A stretch of 63,172 nt of DNA, counting the filler, from an uncultured bacterium (GTDB lineage Bacteria > DAOPZR01): assembly GCA_964637655.1 (NCBI GenBank). It is 10 parts of 10 records of this genome, joined end to end, with 100 filler letters (N's around TTAATTAATTAA, not from the genome) between each part and the next. Parts side by side here need not be neighbours in the genome. Positions count along the whole stretch, not along the records: positions 50,927 to 57,010 come from CAZWUZ010000234.1; 9 more parts are not named here. One strand, 5' to 3'. The notes beneath the pieces were generated by a model, which was not told the DNA's origin, searched no databases, and saw nothing but the letters and a program-made list of their open reading frames with translations. Position numbers and translations under genes: made by a program. Shown in pieces: positions 6,354-57,010 of this stretch; the first letter of the stretch is position 1, and each line of letters opens with the position of its first letter.

Positions 6354-6453
6354 NNNNNNNNNNNNNNNNNNNNNNNNNNNNNNNNNNNNNNNNNNNNTTA
6401 ATTAATTAANNNNNNNNNNNNNNNNNNNNNNNNNNNNNNNNNNNNNNNNNNNN
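6354..6453. other. Artificial contig linker; same at 12804-12903, 19234-19333, 25621-25720, 31964-32063, 38283-38382, 44581-44680, 50827-50926, 57011-57110
   Basis: Identical 100-bp N/TTAATTAATTAA/N blocks with stops in all six frames; genes are cut at many of them. Confidence 0.99.
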
Positions 6454-12803: not shown

Positions 12804-12928
12804 NNNNNNNNNNNNNNNNNNNNNNNNNNNNNNNNNNNNNNNNNNNNTTAATTAATTAANNNNNNNNNNNNNNNNNNNNNNNNNNNNNNNNNNNNNNNNN
12901 NNNTACCGTCACCGTCCGCAGCATCGCC

Positions 12929-38382: not shown

Positions 38383-39694
38383 CAAAACCTCTATCACCCT
38401 CGGCCTCTGCCGGGCACTGGCGCGCGCGGGCGTGACGGTACAGTCGTTCAAGGCGGGGCCTGACTACCTCGACCCGACCTGGCTGTCACGCGCGGCAGCA
38501 GCGCAATGCTGCAATCTCGACACCTGGATGAGCGGCATCCCCTACGTGCGCGCGCTCTGCGCGCGGCTGGCGCCGGCGCGCGGAGTGACCCTCATCGAAG
38601 GGGTGATGGGGATGTACGACGGTGCTGATGCGGCGAGCGACGCGGGGAGCACGGCGGAACTGGCGCGCGTGCTAAACGCACCCGTCATCCTCGTCGTCGA
38701 TGCGCGCGGCGCGGCCCGCAGCGTGGCGGCGACGGTGCGCGGCTTCCGCGATTTCGGTGATGCGAACATCGTCGGGGTCATCGCCAACCGCTGCGGTTCG
38801 GAGAAACATGTGCAGATGCTGCAACAGGCGCTGGCGTCGGCGAATCTGCCGCCGCTGGTCGGGGCGATACCCGACGGGGCATGGGGCGAACTGCCGTCGC
38901 GCCATCTCGGGCTGCTGCGCGCTGACGAGCGGGTGAGCGAACAAACCATCACGGCGCTGGCGGATGCCTGCGCACAGCACATCGACCTGAAGGCACTGCG
39001 CTACCTCGCGCGGCAGGCAGCGCAGCTGCCGGTACCGTCGCGCGAAACAAAGCGGAAAACACGCTGCCGCATCGCGGTGGCCTATGATGCGGCCTTCCAT
39101 TTCTACTACGCGGACAATCTTGCCCTGCTGGCGCGGCGCGGTGCGGAACTGGTCTACTTTTCGCCGCTGCGCGATAGGGCGCTGCCGCGCGACTGTGGCG
39201 CGGTCATCATCGGCGGCGGGTATCCCGAGGCGCACGCGGTGCAGTTGTCGCGCAACCGGGCGCTCATCCGCGCCCTGCGGGCGTTTGCCGCACGCGGCGG
39301 GGTCATCTACGGCGAATGCGGTGGCATGATGTATCTCGGTGAGGCGCTCATCGACGCGGCGGGAAAAAAGCATGCGATGGCGGGCGTCATCCCGGTGACG
39401 ACGCGCATGCGCCCGCGGCTGCAGGCACTCGGCTACGTGCAGGCGACGACATTGCAGCCGACACTCTTCGGGCCGGCAGGGACGGAATTGCGCGGTCATG
39501 AATTCAGGTACTCGGAAGTCGCTGCCGAGCGCGGCGACTGGGAACCCGCCTTCGCGGTGAGTGACGCGCGCGGAGAACAGGAGACGGTTGCCGGCTACGT
39601 TCGCGGCAGCGTGACCGCCAGCTACCTGCACCTGCATTTTGCCGCACATCCGGACCTCGCCGACCGTATTATCGCGGCTGCGAAAAAGCGCTGA
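38383..39694 (+). CDS. cbiA: Cobyrinate a,c-diamide synthase (5' partial)
   Basis: KT, FKAGPDYLDP, IEGVMG.YDG, AFHFYY, GGGYPE, GECGGMMYL, GHEFRYS, ASYLHLHF. Confidence 0.95.
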
Positions 39695-40951: not shown

Positions 40952-41191
40952 ATGGGAAGAAGTACGGTGCAATGGACGGTAAGTTTACCGCCGTCGTTGT
41001 CCAAAAAGGCGCTCGCGGCGGCAAAAAACGAAGATCGGACAAAATCTGAATTTGTGCGCGAATCCATCCGGCAGTATCTGGAGCGACGGGCGCTGGAGGG
41101 TGTGCGCAACCGTTTGAGTCGGCGGTTCGCGGCAATGGGTATCCGGACGGAAGCAGACGTTGAACGGATGATTGATGAAGGCCGTCAGTAA
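40952..41191 (+). CDS. CopG/RHH antitoxin
   Basis: TVSLPPSL..AKNEDRTKSEFVRESIRQYL; GGAGG RBS. Confidence 0.88.
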   Translation: MGRSTVQWTVSLPPSLSKKALAAAKNEDRTKSEFVRESIRQYLERRALEGVRNRLSRRFAAMGIRTEADVERMIDEGRQ

Positions 41192-41603
41192 TAAACCGGT
41201 TGTTGTTTTCGACACGAATGTCCTGGTTTCCATGCTGGGTTTTCGCGGTCGCTTGATGGATGCGCTCCTGGCCCTGGTTGATGCGGGGATGGTGCAACCG
41301 TGCATATCCGAATTCATTATTGGTGAATTGGTGCGGAACCTGGCGGGTAAAGCGAAAATGTCCGAGGAAGATATTCATACTTCTGTCGGCTACCTTCGCG
41401 CCCGCTTCCGTTTGTTTGAATCTTCCGAACGGGTGACGAAAGTTGTAAATTGTGAAGCGGACAATCGCATACTTGAATGCGCGCTCGCGGCCGACGCTGA
41501 ATTTCTGGTTACCGGCAACTTCAAACATTTGCGGCCGATTGGCGATTATTGCGGAATCCGTATCGTGACCCCGCGAGAATTTATGGATATTTTCACCGCT
41601 TGA
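41175..41603 (+). CDS. PIN domain toxin (PIN_3 type)
   Basis: VVFDTNVLVS, E, DNRILECAL..AEFLVTGN, IVTPREF. Confidence 0.92.
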   Translation: MKAVSNKPVVVFDTNVLVSMLGFRGRLMDALLALVDAGMVQPCISEFIIGELVRNLAGKAKMSEEDIHTSVGYLRARFRLFESSERVTKVVNCEADNRILECALAADAEFLVTGNFKHLRPIGDYCGIRIVTPREFMDIFTA

Positions 41604-41919: not shown

Positions 41920-42147
41920 ATGCAGAGCACCATTGTCACACGGGGACAGACCGCAATACCAGCGCAAATTATGCGTCGGTATGGCATTAAGACACGGATG
42001 CGTCTTGAATGGATTGATGACGGCACAACGATTACTGTGAAACCTTGCGAACCTGAACCGCTAAAGGCATTGCGCGGCCGGTTCCGTGGAAGCAAACTGA
42101 TGCGCGCACTGCGTGTGTCCCGGGCCGGGGAACGGGCGCGTGGTTGA
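41920..42147 (+). CDS. AbrB/MazE-type antitoxin
   Basis: TIVTRGQTAIPAQIMRRYGIK...LEW..DGTTITVKP. Confidence 0.9.
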   Translation: MQSTIVTRGQTAIPAQIMRRYGIKTRMRLEWIDDGTTITVKPCEPEPLKALRGRFRGSKLMRALRVSRAGERARG

Positions 42148-42565
42148 GCGTTACCTGCTTGACACCTCGGCGTTGGTTGCTTTGTTGCTTGATGAACCTG
42201 GCGCGTCGACGGTGCAGGATTTGCTCAGAGCGGCGGGAAAAGCGGAAGCGTCGGTCAGTAGCGCTTCGGCTACCGTAACCGTCCTGTGCTATTTGCTGTG
42301 GCAGAGAGAGGGGGAAAGCGCGGCGAAGGCCGTAATGATTGATGTGCGCGCGCTTCCCGTGAAGGTTATTGACACCCACGAGCGCCTGGCATTGAGGGCG
42401 GCACGGTTGAAAGCGTTGTACCGGGTGTCATTTGCCGATGCGGTTATTGCGGCGACGGCGATGGAATGTGATGCAATACTTGTGCATAAAGACCCCGAAT
42501 ACTCTGAACTGATAAATGAGGTGCGGCAATTGGTTCTGCCGTTGAAAAAATCGTCTAAAAAATGA
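42140..42565 (+). CDS. vapC: VapC-type PIN toxin
   Basis: YLLDTSALVA, SFADAVIAATA, LVHKDPEY. Confidence 0.9.
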   Translation: MVERYLLDTSALVALLLDEPGASTVQDLLRAAGKAEASVSSASATVTVLCYLLWQREGESAAKAVMIDVRALPVKVIDTHERLALRAARLKALYRVSFADAVIAATAMECDAILVHKDPEYSELINEVRQLVLPLKKSSKK

Positions 42566-42883: not shown

Positions 42884-43282
42884 CTACTTCTTGCGGTAGG
42901 GCGGTTTGAGGTTATTGAACATCGGGTAGTGGCGTGTATTGAGGGTGATCAGTTCGGCTCCGGCAGATTGAGCGGTAGCTGCGATGATGCAGTCAGCCAG
43001 ACCGACACCATGCGATTTGGCAAAGTCACGCTGCCAGAGCCCGCCCGTTCTGGCAATTTCGGCAGTGAGGGGGAGGAGGCGGAACGAGGCGAGAAAATCA
43101 TCGAGTATCGCCAGTTCGGCGTCATCCCTGATGCCGGCGTAGAGTTCTGCAGCGACCATTGCCGGCAGCAGGATGGATTCCTGATGCCGGGTGATGAAAT
43201 CGACCGCTGCTCGGCGCCCGCGCAGAAAATCAATCAGGACATCGGTATCGACCAGCAGCTGGCGCTGCACCGCATCAGCCAC
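42884..43282 (-). CDS. vapC: VapC-type PIN toxin
   Basis: LLVDTDVLIDFLRG, AELYAG, LADCIIAATA, TLNTRHYP. Confidence 0.93.
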   Translation of the reverse strand: MADAVQRQLLVDTDVLIDFLRGRRAAVDFITRHQESILLPAMVAAELYAGIRDDAELAILDDFLASFRLLPLTAEIARTGGLWQRDFAKSHGVGLADCIIAATAQSAGAELITLNTRHYPMFNNLKPPYRKK

Positions 43283-50707: not shown

Positions 50708-51008
50708 GGTGCACCTCCGTCACTCATACGTGTATCATTATGTCATCATATTGTCAACATGAGTACGGAGAATCCGCACCGGGTGGTCCACGTTCCGCGC
50801 CGCAGCCGGGCGGACGGCAGCGCCGGNNNNNNNNNNNNNNNNNNNNNNNNNNNNNNNNNNNNNNNNNNNNTTAATTAATTAANNNNNNNNNNNNNNNNNN
50901 NNNNNNNNNNNNNNNNNNNNNNNNNNGGGCGAGGGAGAGAATGCCCTCCCTCTCCCTCTGGGAGAGGGCAGGGGTGAGGGGGCTTTTCCCCTCCGTATAA
51001 TCAAAATA

Positions 51009-53894
51009 TCAGCGCGGGCGGGGGAGGCGCTGCAGCAGGTGCAGCAGCGCGTCGCAATCGAACGGCTTGTCGAGCGAGCCGAGCACCGTGCAGGCATGCG
51101 CAACCACGGGCACCTCGTCAGGGTAGCCGGACATCAGGATGGCCGGCAGGCCGGGACGGACTTCGCCGAGACGCTGCAGCAGTTCGTAGCCGTTCATCCG
51201 CGGCATCACGACATCGGTGATAACTGCCGTGAACGATGCCGGCGCGACGCGGAACACTTCCAGCGCACGCTGCGGGTCGCGTTCCGCCTGCACACTGCAC
51301 CCCGCCTGCTCCAGCAATCGCGCGAGGGGCTGCAGCATGTCCGCGTCATCATCCACCAGCAGCAGATGCGCTGCTCTGCGCGCCGGTGCTGCCGGCGCGC
51401 TTTCTGCGGGTGCGGCATCAGCGCGCGGCAGGTAGATGCTGAATTCCGTCCCCTTCCCCGTTGCGCTGTTCACGTCGATGTGGCCGCCCATATCACGCAC
51501 CGTCGCCGCCGCGGTGCTCAACCCGAGCCCCGTTCCCTGCGTCGGTCCCTTGGTGGTGTAGAACGGCTCGAAGACGCGCGGCAGGTCAGCGGCGTCGATG
51601 CCGCTGCCCGTATCGCGCACGCGCAGGCAACAGCAGGTGCCGGCATGCCGCAGATACGGCGGTGCCGTTGCCGGAAGTGGCGCTCTGCGTTCGAGCGTGA
51701 TTTCCAGTGTCCCGCCGTCAGGCATGGCGTCGCGCGCATTGAGACAGAGATTGAGCAGCAGCTGCTGCACTTCCGCACCTGCCCCTTCGACCATCACCGG
51801 CGACGACGGCAACGCGAACCGCGCCGTGATATTCTTCGGGAAGGTGCTGCTGATCAGGCCGCGCAACGCGGTCACTTCCGCCACGAGATCGAGCCGCTGC
51901 AACCGCAGGTTGGCGCCGCGCGCGAATTTCAGCATGGTCGATGACAGGTCGGCCCCGCGGCGGATCAGGGTGCGGATGCCGGCGGTATAGGTTGCCCACT
52001 CGTGCGCGTCGCGCGGTGTCTCATCGAGCAGCGTCAGGTAGTTGAGCAGGCCGCCGAACAGGTTATTGTAATTGTGCGCGAGCCCGGCCGCGAGCTGCCC
52101 GATGGCCGCGGTGCGCTCCTGCCGCACCATCGCCGCGTGTCGCTGCCGGTCGCGCGTGATGTCGATGATGATGCCGCGATAGGCAGCCACATTGCCGTCC
52201 GTGCCGAATACCGGCTGCCCGTGCGCCAGCAGCCAGCGGGGCGTGCCGTCGCGGGTATTGACCCGCAACTCGTACTCGATATCCGCGCCGCGCGCAATTG
52301 CATCGCGTTCCATGCTGATAATGCGGTCGCGGTCATCGGGATGCACCGCCGAGAGCCAGGCCGCCAGCGAGGCAGGGGTGTCGCGCGGCAGGTCGAGCAG
52401 TTCCCACACCTCGTCCGACCAGGTGGTGCGGTTGTCGTCAATCGTCACCTGCCAGAAGCCCGCATGCGCCGCGCGCAGCGCCTCGTGCACCTGCCGGTCG
52501 CGTTCCTGCAGACGCTGCCGCTGTTCCTCGCGCGTCGTCACGTCGATGCCGACACAGATGATGCCGGTGGTCTTGCCGTCCGTATCGCGCAGCGTCCGGT
52601 CATGCCACTCGATCAATCGCTCCGCACCGTTGCGGATGCGGATGGCATTGACATTGCCCCGCGTGCTGTCGCCAGCCGTCGCGCTACGTAATACTGCGGC
52701 AATGCGTGTCTGTTCAGCCGGCGGGATGAAGGTGGCCAGCCAGTCGCGCCCGACCGCCTCCTGCGGCGCATACCCGGTCAGTTCGCAAAAGTACGGGTTG
52801 ACGCTGACCACCTTCCCTGCCGGGTCGAGTTGCATGATGATAACCGGTGCCGCCTGCAGCACGGTATCGGCAAAGGAGCGCGACTGACGCGCCTCCTCCT
52901 GCAGCTGCGCCTTCTCCGTGACATCGATAATGATGCCGTGGATGCCGTCCGTCTCACTACGCAGACGTGAAGCGAGGGTGCGCTGTTCGCCATCGGGGCG
53001 CACGATGCGGTACTGCACTTCCGCCTGTCCGCGCTGCCGCGCGCGCTGATACGCGGCAGCAAAGGTCTCGCGGTCGTCAGGATGAACCATGGCCTGTACC
53101 GCGGCAAAGGTCGGCACGAAGTCATCAGTGACCCCGAAGATGGCGCGGCAGTTGTCCGACCAGACCGCCGTCCCCGTCACGTCCAGCCGGGTGAAATGCC
53201 CGAGACGGGCGAGTTGTTCCGCTTCGGCGTGGTTATCGGTCAGGTGCCGCAGTTTCGCCAGCAGTTTTTCGCGCACCCGGGCGTCCGTGCTGAGCGCCTC
53301 TTCCGAGGCGCGCACCTGCTGGAGCATCGCCTGCAGCTCCTGCTGCGTCGCCTGCAGTGAGGCCGTGCGCGCGCTGACAAGGTGCTCCAGTTGCTCACGG
53401 TCACCCGCCGCGACAAAGAGCGGCGCGAGATGCCGGGCGATGAGCGTGCACTGACGCAGCACATTGGCCAGATTTCCGTGGTCGGGAATACCCAGCAGGA
53501 GCAGCACTCCAGTCGTTTCCGCGTGCGTGGCCAGCGGCACCGCCATGGCATCGGTATAGCCCGCCTCGCGCAGGAGCAGTGCGGCCGGCGTGGTCGAAGC
53601 GGCGGCAATGACCTGCTCCGTGCCGCTGGCACTGACACTGCGGCAGAGTTCGTGCAACGTCGTATCAGACAAACCTGCCCGGTGGCGCTCCGGCACCAGC
53701 GCCATCGTCGTGAACGCGCCAGTCGCAGCGTTGCGCAGGCAGCAGGTGACGGTGCGATAACCGGTCAGTTCCCGCAGCCGCACTGCCAGTGCCTGCGCCA
53801 TTTCCGCCTGCGTCGCGCAGTGCAGTACGGCATCGATGATATCGAGCGTGGCGACCGCGAGGGCAGGGTCCTCGTGCATGCGCAGTTCAGCCAT
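51009..53894 (-). CDS. Cytoplasmic hybrid sensor kinase (GAF-like, 3 PAS, HisKA, HATPase, REC)
   Basis: PAS motifs VHPDDR, DVTE; H-box AHNYNN; NLCLNARDAM, DTGSGI, GTGLGL; REC LVDDD, TDVVMP, KP. Confidence 0.92.
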   Translation of the reverse strand: MAELRMHEDPALAVATLDIIDAVLHCATQAEMAQALAVRLRELTGYRTVTCCLRNAATGAFTTMALVPERHRAGLSDTTLHELCRSVSASGTEQVIAAASTTPAALLLREAGYTDAMAVPLATHAETTGVLLLLGIPDHGNLANVLRQCTLIARHLAPLFVAAGDREQLEHLVSARTASLQATQQELQAMLQQVRASEEALSTDARVREKLLAKLRHLTDNHAEAEQLARLGHFTRLDVTGTAVWSDNCRAIFGVTDDFVPTFAAVQAMVHPDDRETFAAAYQRARQRGQAEVQYRIVRPDGEQRTLASRLRSETDGIHGIIIDVTEKAQLQEEARQSRSFADTVLQAAPVIIMQLDPAGKVVSVNPYFCELTGYAPQEAVGRDWLATFIPPAEQTRIAAVLRSATAGDSTRGNVNAIRIRNGAERLIEWHDRTLRDTDGKTTGIICVGIDVTTREEQRQRLQERDRQVHEALRAAHAGFWQVTIDDNRTTWSDEVWELLDLPRDTPASLAAWLSAVHPDDRDRIISMERDAIARGADIEYELRVNTRDGTPRWLLAHGQPVFGTDGNVAAYRGIIIDITRDRQRHAAMVRQERTAAIGQLAAGLAHNYNNLFGGLLNYLTLLDETPRDAHEWATYTAGIRTLIRRGADLSSTMLKFARGANLRLQRLDLVAEVTALRGLISSTFPKNITARFALPSSPVMVEGAGAEVQQLLLNLCLNARDAMPDGGTLEITLERRAPLPATAPPYLRHAGTCCCLRVRDTGSGIDAADLPRVFEPFYTTKGPTQGTGLGLSTAAATVRDMGGHIDVNSATGKGTEFSIYLPRADAAPAESAPAAPARRAAHLLLVDDDADMLQPLARLLEQAGCSVQAERDPQRALEVFRVAPASFTAVITDVVMPRMNGYELLQRLGEVRPGLPAILMSGYPDEVPVVAHACTVLGSLDKPFDCDALLHLLQRLPRPR

Positions 53895-54447
53895 GCAGCG
53901 CTCCGTCAACCGCCGTGCGCAACTGTTTCAGCCCGGTGACACGCACCTGCCAGGGCAGCCCGCAGAAATCGCTGAATTCCTGCAGTGCCGCTTCGGGTAC
54001 CGGCACCAGTCCGGTATCGAGATAGAGCAGGTAGCGGTGATGCTCGCGCATGAAGTCGCGCGCCGTGCTGCCGTCAAGTCCGAGTTCCTGCGCGAAGACC
54101 TCGCGCCAGCGCCGCGCCCATTCAGGCATCAGGAAAAAAGCGCCATCGCGGCGCAGGGTGCGGTAGGTTTCCGTGCCGAGCAGTATCTCGCAGCAGTTGA
54201 TGCCCGTGGTGCGACGCACCCGCCCGCGCTCCCCGCAGTCAGGCATGCGCGGATGGCAGTCACCATAGAGCAGGACGACCGCGCGGTCGCCCGCTGTTGC
54301 CAGCGCGGCATCGAGTTGCACCCGCAGTTCCGCCGGCCGGATATGCAGCGTGGATTCAAGGAAGTGCCGGTCGCAGGCGAGGTCGGGGAGCGCCGCCAGT
54401 TCCGCGCGGAAGATGGAACAGGCAATGCAGAGCGGGCGTTCAGCCAT
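53887..54447 (-). CDS. DUF1638 domain protein
   Basis: CIACSIFRAEL, LHIRP, LLYGDCH, NCCEILLG, YLDTG. Confidence 0.82.
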   Translation of the reverse strand: MAERPLCIACSIFRAELAALPDLACDRHFLESTLHIRPAELRVQLDAALATAGDRAVVLLYGDCHPRMPDCGERGRVRRTTGINCCEILLGTETYRTLRRDGAFFLMPEWARRWREVFAQELGLDGSTARDFMREHHRYLLYLDTGLVPVPEAALQEFSDFCGLPWQVRVTGLKQLRTAVDGALHG

Positions 54448-55441
54448 CGGCGAACACGCCGGCAAGCGCATGCAGGTTTCCGGGCGCCGTCGCGTACGGC
54501 ACATCCGGGCCGGTGGTGGTGAAGATGAAGCGGGTGTCGGTCAGTTCAGTGCAGCGCGCGCGCGCGGACATGGCGATTTCCGACGGGGCCCGGTCAGCCA
54601 GTGACGGGCCGTCGATGCCGCTGAGCAGCGGGCGCTCCGGTCCCACCGCGGCGCGGCAGGCCGCGAGCGGGTCGCGCGCATCGACCGCGAACGCCGCCGC
54701 GGGGAGCGGGGCGAGCAGGTCGAGGAAGGGATGCATAGGGCCGCCGGCATGATGGATGATGACCGGGCCCTTGACCTGGCTGAGCGCCTGCTGCAGCACC
54801 GGCACCACGTGCTGCTCGACCAGCGTGCGCGGCAGCACCGCGGGCGAAGTGAATATGCTCGGAAGAATGACGCAGGCTGCTCCGTCAGCAAGCAGGGCGT
54901 TCGCCCAGCGCACGAAATGCGCTGACGTCATCGCCAGCACGTCGCGCCGCAACGGCACCTCACAGAGGAATATCTCCAGCCAGCGTTCGAGCCCGAAGAG
55001 CATTACCGGCAGGGCAAACGGGTCGAGCGCCAGTGCCGCCACCGGCAGCGTCGTGCCGTTATCCGCCACGGTGCGGCGCAACGACTCGCGCAGGTAGAGC
55101 AGTGACGGGTGGATGTCGATATCGGGCAGGTGGCAAGCGGTAAATTCCTCTCCCGCCAGCGCGGGGCGGTCGAGGTTGGGTGGCTGGTTGGCAAAGGTAT
55201 GGGCGGTGGCGCCGAACGCTTCTCCTTCCTTCACCAGCGCAAACGGCATGAAGAGGATGTCAGGATGGAAGGTGTCGCGCACCGCCCGCTGCCCTGCCGC
55301 GTAGGCGCCCGGGTCGTGATAGTAGCGTTCCAGCGGGCAGTCCGTAAGGCGGGCGCCATACAGCGAGAGGACCGCGGTCCACGGGGTGCGGTCGGGCCTT
55401 GCCCCGCTCAGCGCCGCCATGACGCGCTCGGCGCTGTTCAT
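54440..55441 (-). CDS. URO-D/MtaA(CmuA) family protein
   Basis: MNSAERV.AAL.G..PDR.P, EGEAFGA, PF; Zn-site region reads IIHHAGG and TTTGPD. Confidence 0.85.
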   Translation of the reverse strand: MNSAERVMAALSGARPDRTPWTAVLSLYGARLTDCPLERYYHDPGAYAAGQRAVRDTFHPDILFMPFALVKEGEAFGATAHTFANQPPNLDRPALAGEEFTACHLPDIDIHPSLLYLRESLRRTVADNGTTLPVAALALDPFALPVMLFGLERWLEIFLCEVPLRRDVLAMTSAHFVRWANALLADGAACVILPSIFTSPAVLPRTLVEQHVVPVLQQALSQVKGPVIIHHAGGPMHPFLDLLAPLPAAAFAVDARDPLAACRAAVGPERPLLSGIDGPSLADRAPSEIAMSARARCTELTDTRFIFTTTGPDVPYATAPGNLHALAGVFADG

Positions 55442-56094
55442 GAGGCCGACTCCCAGAGGCGCGCGAAGAGCGCGGGGGCTTCGAGCGCGTTGGGCGCCGT
55501 CCCGTCACCGCCCAGTTCGTTGACCAGTTCCGGGCGCAGGTTGAAGACCGCGCCGCCCACCGCAAGTTTCAGGTGCGCCCGCAGGCCGCGCCGCTCGATC
55601 TGCGCGCGCACGGCGCGGATATTGCGCGCGGTGGTGAGCATCATCGCCGAAACGCCCACCACCTTCGCCCCGCTCTGCTCCGCCGCGTCGAGCAACCGGT
55701 CGGCGGTGACGTCGGTGCCAAGATCGATGACTTCCCAGCCGTCGAGTTTGAGGAAGGTCCCGACCATGCGCCGCCCGAGGGGATGGAAATCATCCTCGGC
55801 ATTGGCAATGACCACCGGGCCGGGGCGTTTGCCTGCCGGTGCCTGCGCCCGCTGCTCTGCCACCCGTTCGAGAAAGTCCTCGACCACCTTGCCGGCGATA
55901 TACCCTTGCGCCAGCGAGATGCTCTCCTTCGCCCAGGCCTCACCGATGGCGCGCAACGTCGGTTCCAGCAATTCGCTAATGACCTGTTCCGGAGTACGCT
56001 GCGGTGCGAACTGTTCGAGCACGGCATTGGCCGCCCCGCGGTCGCCCCGCATGATGGCGGCAAGCAACTGGTCAGGAGGGTTCTGCTGCGGCAT
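55438..56094 (-). CDS. Corrinoid (B12-binding) protein, MtaC/MtbC type
   Basis: Cap domain LEPTLRAIGEAW, base-off motif DFHPLG (DxHxxG), DLGTDV, GVSAMM, VGGA. Confidence 0.92.
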   Translation of the reverse strand: MPQQNPPDQLLAAIMRGDRGAANAVLEQFAPQRTPEQVISELLEPTLRAIGEAWAKESISLAQGYIAGKVVEDFLERVAEQRAQAPAGKRPGPVVIANAEDDFHPLGRRMVGTFLKLDGWEVIDLGTDVTADRLLDAAEQSGAKVVGVSAMMLTTARNIRAVRAQIERRGLRAHLKLAVGGAVFNLRPELVNELGGDGTAPNALEAPALFARLWESAS

Positions 56095-56204
56095 AGGGCA
56101 CCTCACCGTATGTTGTTGCCTGACATTTCAGTATAGCATACTCTTCGTTTCTGTTCAGGCTGCGCAGGCATGTTGGAGCGCTGCTCAGCCACCTTGCCCC
56201 CTGA

Positions 56205-56345
56205 TATCCTGCTACGCGACCGCGGTTGCGGCATAGGTCACCGCAATCGTCAGCGGGAGCGCCGTCCGTCTCCCGGGTCGCCTGTATCCTGGTGCGCGAC
56301 TGCGGTTGCAGCAAAGGGCACCGCAATCGTCAGCGGGAGCGCCGT
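56205..56345. repeat. Two ~61-bp direct repeats with internal hairpins, period 80 bp
   Basis: TATCCTG..GCGAC.GCGGTTGC..CACCGCAATCGTCAGCGGGAGCGCCGT at 56205-56265 and 56285-56345. Confidence 0.85.
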
Positions 56346-56798
56346 AAAACCTGCCGGCGGCGTGAGACGCCGTCGGCAGGGAAACGCGCGACCCCGCGGG
56401 AGGCGGGACAACCATCACGCATTTTTTACATTCGTCGCAACTATTCACCCAATCAGTCCCCTCTCCTTTGGGAGAGGGCGACGCGCAGCGTCGGGTGAGG
56501 GGATACGTCCGCCGTGTCCGCCCTCGCCGCTCCGCGTCTTCCTCTCCCGCTATGAACAGCGGGCGAGGGGACAGACGGGCTGAATAGTTACCATTCGTCT
56601 TTGAAAAAGCGGCCCGATGCCGAAGCACCGGGCCGCTGCCATGCTGGACGCCATCAATGATGACGTACAAGCCAACGTTGCTGTTTTTGCCTTCCCACAA
56701 TTGCCGGTTTATGTGTTACTGTTTCCCACTGACGCATCTGAATCAGTCGTTTTCCGCCGTTTCCCTATCACCGTAAATGGGGACTGTCCCCATTTATT

Positions 56799-57010
56799 TC
56801 AGAACTCCTTCAGCGTTTTGTCGTCGTCGAAGGGGATGGCCTGCGCTCCTGCCGATGCCGCCGGTTTCGCCACCACTTTCGGTGCCGCCGCCACGGCCCT
56901 CGCCGCCGGCTTCGCCTTCTTCGCCGCTGGCTTCTGCCCGCTGATGACAAATGAACCGGCCAGCGCGTTGACTTCCACCGCCTGCCCGCTCAATTCTTCG
57001 GCTGCGCTCG
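56799..57010 (-). CDS. Methyl-accepting chemotaxis protein C-terminus (partial)
   Basis: SAAEELSGQA methylation helix, Ala/Lys/Pro linker, IPFDDDKTLKEF tail. Confidence 0.85.

Follow-up and report, generated by a model that had tools for sequence, protein, structure and literature searches.

The window analysed here is a 63,172-base stretch from the genome of an uncultured bacterium (assembly GCA_964637655.1). It is made up of contigs C226-C235, ten in all and about 6.1-6.35 kb each, with runs of 100 N between them (the first two at window 6354-6453 and 12804-12903), so that genes on the two sides of a joint are not linked in the genome. One of these contigs, C234 (window 50927-57010, 6,084 bases, with borders at 50826/50927 and 57010/57111), carries a four-gene operon and about 0.9 kb upstream of it, and nothing else. 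The four genes lie on the minus strand and give strong family matches (Table 1) to a corrinoid protein, a protein of the uroporphyrinogen decarboxylase (URO-D)/MtaA fold, a DUF1638 protein and a hybrid histidine kinase. The cassette that they form looks like an undescribed route from B12 chemistry to a cellular signal.

The corrinoid and URO-D genes share a 4-nucleotide (nt) overlap, ATGA, and the URO-D/DUF1638 and DUF1638/kinase junctions both read ATGGCTGA. The latter two junctions presuppose the starts ATG 54447 and ATG 53894, which are consistent with the alignments of homologues. Given these overlaps, the four genes are probably translated as one unit. The family matches and the junctions agree with the original prediction, made from the sequence of this stretch, that four overlapping genes of these identities lie here.

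The kinase, whose stop codon (51009-51011) is 83 nt from the contig end, contains the H-box GLAHNYNN, an HATPase_c domain and a receiver domain with the motif ITDVVMP. Pfam HisKA gives no match to it, and CckA-like NCBIfam models match in part. The highest 19-residue Kyte-Doolittle mean is 1.43, and the protein is soluble by this measure, with no membrane-spanning hydrophobic segment. Its N-terminal part of about 230 residues has no Pfam match above cut-off; the Pfam GAF model reaches 17.1 bits there, under the cut-off of 22.4, and 20 of 39 members of the domain family touch Pfam GAF models at E <= 1 (best 3.4e-6). The AlphaFold model of this part has a mean predicted local distance difference test score (pLDDT) of 92.9, and a Foldseek search with it returned 342 PDB matches at E <= 0.001 (best 1.7e-7), of which the top-ranking ones (ranks 1-50) are GAF-containing proteins with a phytochrome on top. 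Judged by the model, the N-terminal domain is thus a divergent, module-specific GAF domain with a clear fold, and the earlier description of a soluble hybrid kinase with a GAF-like domain holds.

Table 1. Positions of the cassette genes, the kinase domains and a promoter-like site in the window
Feature	Window position	Strand	Evidence or remark
Corrinoid protein	55438..56106	-	B12-binding 1.5e-24, B12-binding_2 6.1e-10
URO-D/MtaA-fold methyltransferase-like protein, 333 aa	54440..55441	-	PF01208 1.2e-34
DUF1638 protein, 186 aa from ATG 54447	53887..54447	-	2.4e-29; longest open reading frame starts at 54504
Hybrid kinase open reading frame, 966 residues	51009..53909	-	three PAS, HATPase_c 1.5e-23, Response_reg 2.5e-16
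Divergent GAF domain and linker helix, kinase N-terminus, about 195 aa from ATG 53894	53310..53894	-	Foldseek E 1.7e-7, probability 1.00
Three PAS domains of the kinase	52140..53192	-	PAS_3 in three stretches 2.7e-39; also PAS, PAS_9, PAS_4
Kinase core: H-box GLAHNYNN (His codon about 52074-52076) and HATPase_c	51420..52076	-	Pfam; partial CckA-like matches
Receiver domain, kinase C-terminus	51033..51362	-	Response_reg 2.5e-16
Sigma-70-like promoter match, TGAACA-16-TATACT with TG	56130..56157	-	24 nt upstream of GTG 56106; position only

Gene order, fusions and the GAF type

A peptide pattern taken from an alignment of 14 URO-D sequences was scanned over one genome per species, and the open reading frames (ORFs) of the resulting 57 loci were searched with profiles built from the window proteins and their first matches. 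By their record labels the loci belong to Desulfobacterota, Myxococcota, Planctomycetota, Chloroflexota, Spirochaetota, Verrucomicrobiota, Acidobacteriota, Synergistota, Zixibacteria, Sumerlaeota, 'Vulcanimicrobiota', Accumulibacter and others, and they represent more than 10 phyla overall. The corrinoid gene lies directly upstream of the URO-D gene in all 55 loci that could be assessed (the other two begin within URO-D), and DUF1638 directly downstream of it in 54 of 55 (two contigs end too early), with a truncated second copy in locus L071 as the sole exception. A kinase gene opening with the same GAF type follows DUF1638 in 53 of 53 loci (four contigs end too early). Fifty of these GAF matches are full-length with E < 1e-10; another runs off the end of its contig, and in two (L030 and L061) a 100-N run masks part of the sequence. 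No trio of this URO-D subfamily was therefore seen without a signalling gene among the assessable loci, an arrangement that, had it been the usual one, would have refuted the original prediction.

Pfam searches of 51 of the downstream proteins found HATPase_c in 46; three of the others are cut by contig ends, one is split with its core in the next ORF, and one consists of GAF and PAS only. The phospho-acceptor domain in this set is mostly HisKA, is HisKA_2/HWE in 8 proteins and is unrecognised in a few, including the CckA-like core of the window. The numbers of PAS and additional GAF domains vary and a receiver is found in about half, whereas the N-terminal GAF domain is constant. Such a combination, one constant input with exchanged kinase cores behind it, is what a sensory module would be expected to show. 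A response regulator with a DNA-binding domain is not part of the conserved unit.

Some loci depart from the common arrangement. Locus L071 (5414-13187) holds two cassettes in a back-to-back arrangement. In the minus-strand copy, DUF1638 and the kinase are fused; in the plus-strand copy URO-D is cut to the first 170 profile positions and DUF1638 is missing, with the GAF kinase intact. In a metagenome-assembled genome (MAG) labelled Methanospirillum, the gene after DUF1638 (L038:2858-4126) encodes a GAF-PAS protein of 423 aa with no recognised kinase domain, which may be due to faulty binning or to truncation of the output. In L019, L022, L024 and L025, another large hybrid kinase that matches the GAF profile is found on the minus strand about 3-4 kb downstream of the cassette, and there is one also at L033:7900-11151, so the GAF type has paralogues close to the cassette in some lineages.

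Gene fusions join the components in several combinations. DUF1638, GAF and kinase form a single polypeptide in L030, L059, L075, the minus-strand copy of L071 and G246:C84, and also in the database proteins P0109, P0111, P0112, P0206, P0208, P0239 and P0245. URO-D is fused with DUF1638 in P0019, P0087, P0093-95 and P0097, and with a B12-binding domain in P0067. Pairwise distances between GAF domains over 43 loci, used here as a descriptive measure because the loci are related, follow those of the trio, with Spearman correlations of 0.64 for DUF1638, 0.53 for the corrinoid protein and 0.49 for URO-D; for the kinase core of the same polypeptide the value is 0.02.

We then asked how strictly this GAF type accompanies DUF1638. 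The host phylum is represented by two species-level genomes in the collection, of which the second lacks DUF1638, and for this reason the survey was done in Desulfobacterota, the phylum of the Desulfopila aestuarii genome with locus L047. Among 401 Desulfobacterota genomes, DUF1638 occurs in 101, and strong matches to the GAF type number six (112-242 bits) in five genomes. Each of the six has a DUF1638 gene immediately upstream, which is degenerate in one case. At the 30 best canonical DUF1638 loci in the same phylum, a corrinoid gene is found within 1.5 kb in 15, URO-D in 5 and the GAF type in none, and these counts are lower bounds because the profiles come from the cassette family. An exhaustive search of 1.84 billion representatives with the GAF profile gave 389 clusters at E <= 1e-30. 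Of the 150 best representatives, 139 have the start of the domain at residue 31 or earlier. In 6 others it begins at residues 203-236, and the five of these that were scanned all have DUF1638 in front. Among the 64 of the 150 best that were scanned, 45 are kinases (HisKA, HisKA_2 or HisKA_3) and 19 show only PAS, GAF, DUF1638 or nothing. Outputs of the GGDEF, EAL, methyl-accepting chemotaxis protein or sigma-54 activator type were found neither in these 64 nor in the 51 proteins encoded downstream of DUF1638.

The components and the partner enzymes in the host genome

The corrinoid protein (222 aa from GTG 56106, with ATG 56094 as an alternative start) consists of a four-helix cap (B12-binding_2) and a Rossmann B12-binding domain. 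The DxHxxG motif, described as intact in the original prediction, is indeed kept as DFHPLG at residues 106-111, and S153 and G184-G185 are in place as well. Of 58 family members, all have D106 and G111, and 56 have H108. The best NCBIfam model is TIGR02370, 'methyltransferase cognate corrinoid protein', at 94.6 bits, under its cut-off of 215. Methylcobalamin is light-sensitive, and the cassette could in principle sense light or B12 availability, with the methyl ligand lost in the light and restored in the dark by the URO-D protein. B12-binding domains do serve as photoreceptors in CarH and photocobilins, and the B12 light signature is given in the available text as GxxW, EH, GxxH and GxxxP (PMC11796333). 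The GxxW element is present in the corrinoid family, with G55 in 56 and W58 in 50 of the 58 members. However, the EH element is missing in all 58, with G/A-Y/F at that place, so that a CarH-type light sensor appears unlikely from these alignments, and the protein scores best with models of methyltransferase-cognate proteins. Many of the hosts are, by their record labels, anaerobes of groundwater, sediments and reactors; a plain B12 sensor would need neither a conserved enzyme nor DUF1638; and Rfam found no riboswitch on the contig, cobalamin riboswitches included, with sub-threshold matches only. It is thus improbable that light or B12 supply as such is what the cassette senses.

In the URO-D protein, the PF01208 match spans residues 3-327. 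The protein alone matches the solved MtaA structure 4ay7 weakly (E 0.0043), and the profile of a 34-member family finds MtaA as its best solved relative (E 1.3e-23, residues 17-346). None of the NCBIfam cut-offs is reached (score/cut-off: MtaA_Meth 44.9/400, MtbA 32.5/600, mtaA_cmuA 42/235.4, PRK06252 61.9/244). The family has 107 cluster representatives at E <= 1e-10, with 33-58% identity. In MtaA-type enzymes, a zinc site of the form H-x-C...C activates the thiol acceptor. Its ligands occupy positions H246, C248 and C325 in the 4ay7 chain, with the same spacing as H237/C239/C316, which we take to be the MtaA numbering. In the profile alignment, MtaA 'LHICG' stands over 'IHHAG' of the family, which keeps the histidine (H230) and places A232 at the first cysteine, and 'PGCGI' stands over 'TGPDV', which places P312 at the second. 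Both zinc cysteines are thus lost, as had been read from the HHA and GPD segments, and the ligands are not present at shifted positions. The first cysteine survives, as HHC, in 5 of the 34 family members (P0044, P0055, P0075, P0076 and P0079), and the second is kept in none of them.

The loss of these cysteines does not imply a loss of catalysis. CdmB, a chloromethane methyltransferase of the URO-D fold, is reported in the available text to have a zinc-free crystal structure and to be active and insensitive to EDTA or added zinc (PMC13222342), and its structure 9rui matches the family profile at 2.1e-6. Of the earlier argument, the missing cysteines therefore stand, and their weight against catalysis is small. 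To judge from the alignment, the altered site rules out a thiol-activating enzyme of the MtaA type and leaves catalysis possible. In the 34 sequences from many phyla, H230 is nearly invariant, D61, R263 and D313 are invariant and the mean column identity is 52%. Conservation of this strength speaks for a working, if only predicted, active site. D61 was also considered as a mark of a decarboxylase-like tetrapyrrole site and was dropped, because the Asp of HemE 'SDIL' (by MAFFT) and a Glu of MtaA occupy the same place, which makes the residue non-discriminating.

As the genome contains a single PF01208 match, it could be asked whether the URO-D protein is simply the HemE (uroporphyrinogen decarboxylase) of the organism. 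The chance of this is negligible. The family profile matches MtaA at 1.3e-23 as given above and true decarboxylases at 1.8e-8 or worse, the hhalign alignment to Escherichia coli HemE covers columns 76-339 only, the family lacks the N-terminal 'RQAGRYLPEY...' segment of HemE in the MAFFT alignment, and the gene always lies between the corrinoid and DUF1638 genes.

The DUF1638 protein matches PF07796 with 102.7 bits against a gathering cut-off of 27, over profile positions 1-160 of 161. The cassette proteins form a lower-scoring subfamily (103 bits, compared with 150-167 bits for canonical DUF1638) that conserves C29, H54, C83 and C104 as well as S51, N103, Y114, W129, Y161 and T164 (numbering of the 205-aa ORF). 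The pattern of three cysteines and one histidine fits a putative metal or cluster site. The predicted model (pLDDT 93.1) has two alpha/beta lobes. The best Foldseek match is weak, to the cobalt chelatase CbiK (1qgo, E 1.7e-3, probability 0.97); VIA-align 2 gives Z <= 7.7, within the background range stated by the tool, to LacI/periplasmic-binding-protein lobes and receiver domains, and Z 6.4 to CbiK 2xvx. The DUF1638 profile has no match among PDB sequences (best E 0.061). Because these similarities are weak, no function can be read from the fold. A complex prediction for DUF1638 (20-205) with the GAF domain (1-175), both given as alignments, scored 0.01 and 0.00 against a mark of 0.32, which speaks neither for nor against binding.

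The best PDB sequence matches of the GAF profile are bilin-binding GAF domains (Cph2 with E 0.0057, bacteriophytochromes and cyanobacteriochromes). Together with the phytochrome on top of the Foldseek list, the CbiK match of DUF1638 and a URO-D fold that arose on tetrapyrrole substrates, these matches might suggest a cofactor-maturation set, in which the trio makes, modifies or loads a tetrapyrrole-type cofactor bound by the kinase GAF domain. We regard this as very unlikely. The matches are weak or due to a PDB rich in phytochromes, and the Z-scores of DUF1638 are background; with equal scores for phytochrome, PtsP and cAMP-binding GAF domains, the matches do not point to any one class of ligand. 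Moreover, the cassette GAF domain has no conserved Cys or His, its conserved residues being P68, P120, G129, R41 and R70.

The source assembly (485 contigs, 3.99 Mb, 90.55% complete) contains a single gene each for URO-D and DUF1638. Besides the cassette, only MetH has the B12 cap domain, and Pterin_bind occurs in FolP and MetH only. At this completeness, the genome shows no MttB, MtaB or MtrH, no second methyltransferase of any such kind and no RamA-type activase (PF14574). It has 45 matches to the B12-binding domain, mostly in long ORFs resembling B12-radical-SAM enzymes, and a CobB/CobQ-type gene in the window (38432-39694) indicates that cobalamin is in use. The original prediction had noted that no substrate-specific methyltransferase lies on the contig. 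That is true and uninformative, because C234 contains just the four genes and 0.9 kb; the genome-wide searches are the real test.

These searches bear on the view that the cassette is an ordinary metabolic operon that encodes half of a corrinoid methyl-transfer pathway, or a cofactor-repair set, and that the kinase is a co-transcribed regulator which senses something else with its PAS and GAF domains and acts on this operon or on others. Regulators are commonly encoded by their targets, the kinase has three PAS domains of its own, and canonical DUF1638 stands beside corrinoid genes without such a kinase, as in the 30 Desulfobacterota loci. In Phaeobacter inhibens, the split methionine synthase requires DUF1638 (PGA1_c13340) together with a RamA-like protein, and the available text of that study proposes no function for it (PMC5764234). 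A metabolic role would not, however, account for in-frame DUF1638-GAF-kinase fusions in several lineages, for a GAF type that is beside DUF1638 in six of six cases and varies in step with the trio but not with the core of its own kinase, or for a conserved unit that includes no DNA-binding response regulator. Nor were a second methyltransferase, an acceptor-side enzyme or RamA found in the host genome. We therefore consider a purely metabolic operon rather unlikely.

A proposed input from protein-bound B12 to the kinase

Taken together, we suggest, with a probability of about 0.6, that the four genes form one sensory unit that reports the chemical state of protein-bound B12 through the kinase. 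The view of the original prediction, that the corrinoid/URO-D/DUF1638 trio is a putative input module of the kinase and not a catabolic pathway, is supported by the gene order (53 of 53), the fusions, the co-variation, the six-of-six exclusivity of the GAF type and the lack of a second methyltransferase or RamA in the genome. In the mechanism that we propose, the corrinoid protein would carry cobalamin in the base-off/His-on form, and the URO-D-fold protein, as a zinc-independent methyltransferase, would add a methyl group to the cobalt or remove it with a small-molecule partner. DUF1638 may service or read the corrinoid protein through its three-Cys/one-His site and would hand the state on to the dedicated N-terminal GAF domain, presumably by direct contact and in this direction. 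The kinase would then change its autophosphorylation and the phosphorelay through its own receiver domain. The output would report methyl-Co(III) versus Co(I)/Co(II), and hence possibly the supply of methyl donors or a very low redox potential/oxygen.

Several points weigh against this reading. The whole case is computational, built on sequence comparison and predicted structures. A single methyltransferase and no RamA leave the start and closure of the Co(I)/methyl-Co(III) cycle unaccounted for, and the sequences point to no particular methyl donor or acceptor. The real signal could instead enter through the PAS domains, of which the kinase has three. Given 485 contigs and incomplete recovery, missing genes may be unassembled. 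RamA-like genes are found in four of five other cassette genomes, where they are unlinked to the cassette. The locus set was drawn by a pattern from one URO-D subfamily, and the 57 loci thus say nothing on other URO-D or DUF1638 subfamilies, which are mostly without such a kinase. The distance correlations come from related loci, and kinase cores of different classes align poorly, which alone lowers the core correlation.

It is also conceivable, if doubtful, that the GAF domain is itself a corrinoid- or tetrapyrrole-handling sensor, to which a docked DUF1638 presents or exchanges a cofactor whose methylation is set by the corrinoid and URO-D proteins. An enzymatically written B12 mark would then be a two-component signal, and the cassette would provide both the first link of a GAF domain to B12 and the first case of a sensor whose ligand state a dedicated methyltransferase sets.

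The proposed sensory unit resembles known systems in its parts. As in the MtaC/MtaA pairs of methanogens, where MtaA is methyltransferase 2 (MT2), a corrinoid protein with cap and DxHxxG is encoded beside a URO-D-fold partner. Unlike them, the cassette lacks both zinc cysteines, its genome has neither RamA nor a methyltransferase 1 (MT1; MtaB/MttB), and DUF1638 and the GAF kinase always follow. Of the parts of a three-component corrinoid system (MT1, corrinoid protein, MT2 and activase), the cassette has the corrinoid protein, and neither two methyltransferases nor RamA were found in the genome. Closer in the zinc site are the zinc-free MT1s of acetogens (CdmB of CdmBCA and O-demethylase MT1s), in which, by the available text, a URO-D fold methylates a separate corrinoid protein (PMC13222342); those systems, however, have a second methyltransferase to tetrahydrofolate and an activase and feed carbon metabolism, whereas the partner in the cassette is a kinase.

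DUF1638 is encoded beside a corrinoid protein also in P. inhibens (PGA1_c13340) and Ruegeria pomeroyi (SPO2162), and SPO2162 is more abundant on methylated osmolytes, according to the parts of these reports that are available (PMC5764234, PMC12478193). The cassette DUF1638 differs from these proteins in being lower-scoring and in being followed by or fused to a GAF kinase, and the host genome has no RamA. CarH and photocobilins share with the cassette the use of a B12-binding domain in signalling, as proposed here, and the GxxW element; they differ in that the cassette lacks EH, has a separate B12 polypeptide with an enzyme, and has a two-component kinase as output instead of a fused DNA-binding or cyclase domain. 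In pairs of H-NOX or NosP with a kinase, a separate cofactor-binding sensor is encoded in the kinase operon and is thought to gate a soluble kinase. Compared with these pairs, the cassette has an enzyme and a B12 carrier among the three proteins of its sensor side, and its kinase has a GAF receiver dedicated to them.

To our knowledge, corrinoid methyltransferase systems are known only as metabolic, and B12 signalling only as light sensing or riboswitch control. If the sensory reading is true, the cassette would represent a third use of B12, in which the two-component signalling of anaerobes responds to one-carbon supply or to a very low redox potential. DUF1638, which on genetic evidence is needed for corrinoid methyl transfer and has no assigned role, would also gain a first link to a function. 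In the open literature, the scope of our search with subscription journals outside it, no description of the cassette was found. The sole mention found concerns GSU2386 and GSU2387, for which the available text of one study makes a passing suggestion that they may work with CO dehydrogenase, and the proteins were undetected in that proteome (PMC7894505).

The upstream region and other contigs of the window

The sigma-70-like match upstream of the corrinoid gene (Table 1) is the sole one on the contig, compared with 0.8 +/- 0.8 in shuffles. Just upstream of this promoter-like site, window 56205-56345 contains a sequence unit of at least 61 nt twice in tandem, at 90% identity and with an 80-nt period. 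The unit has weak matches at most elsewhere in the genome, and the two copies may be a regulator-binding region. Farther upstream of the operon lies an element about 110-150 nt long (56439-56589), with inverted-repeat arms of 28 nt, which overlaps a sub-threshold match to the Rfam family 'whalefall-1' (26.4 bits, with 37 as the threshold). It is a dispersed repeat: within the genome, blastn gives 58 high-scoring segment pairs, spread over many contigs and in several cases located at contig ends. To judge from these features, it looks like a repeat of the miniature inverted-repeat transposable element (MITE) or repetitive extragenic palindrome (REP) kind that breaks the assembly.

Two further contigs of the window deserve mention. 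On C232 (41172-43282), three PIN-domain genes (41172-41603, 42113-42565 and 42884-43282) lie beside the gene of the CobB/CobQ-type amidotransferase, and they are probably toxin-antitoxin loci. On C235 (59848-63172), an 821-aa oligosaccharyltransferase of the STT3/AglB type, which has AglB core and L1 domains, comes after an enzyme of glycosyltransferase family 4 (GT4) and a MiaB-like radical-SAM gene and before a PMT_2 glycosyltransferase; together these genes look like a protein N-glycosylation locus in a bacterial MAG.

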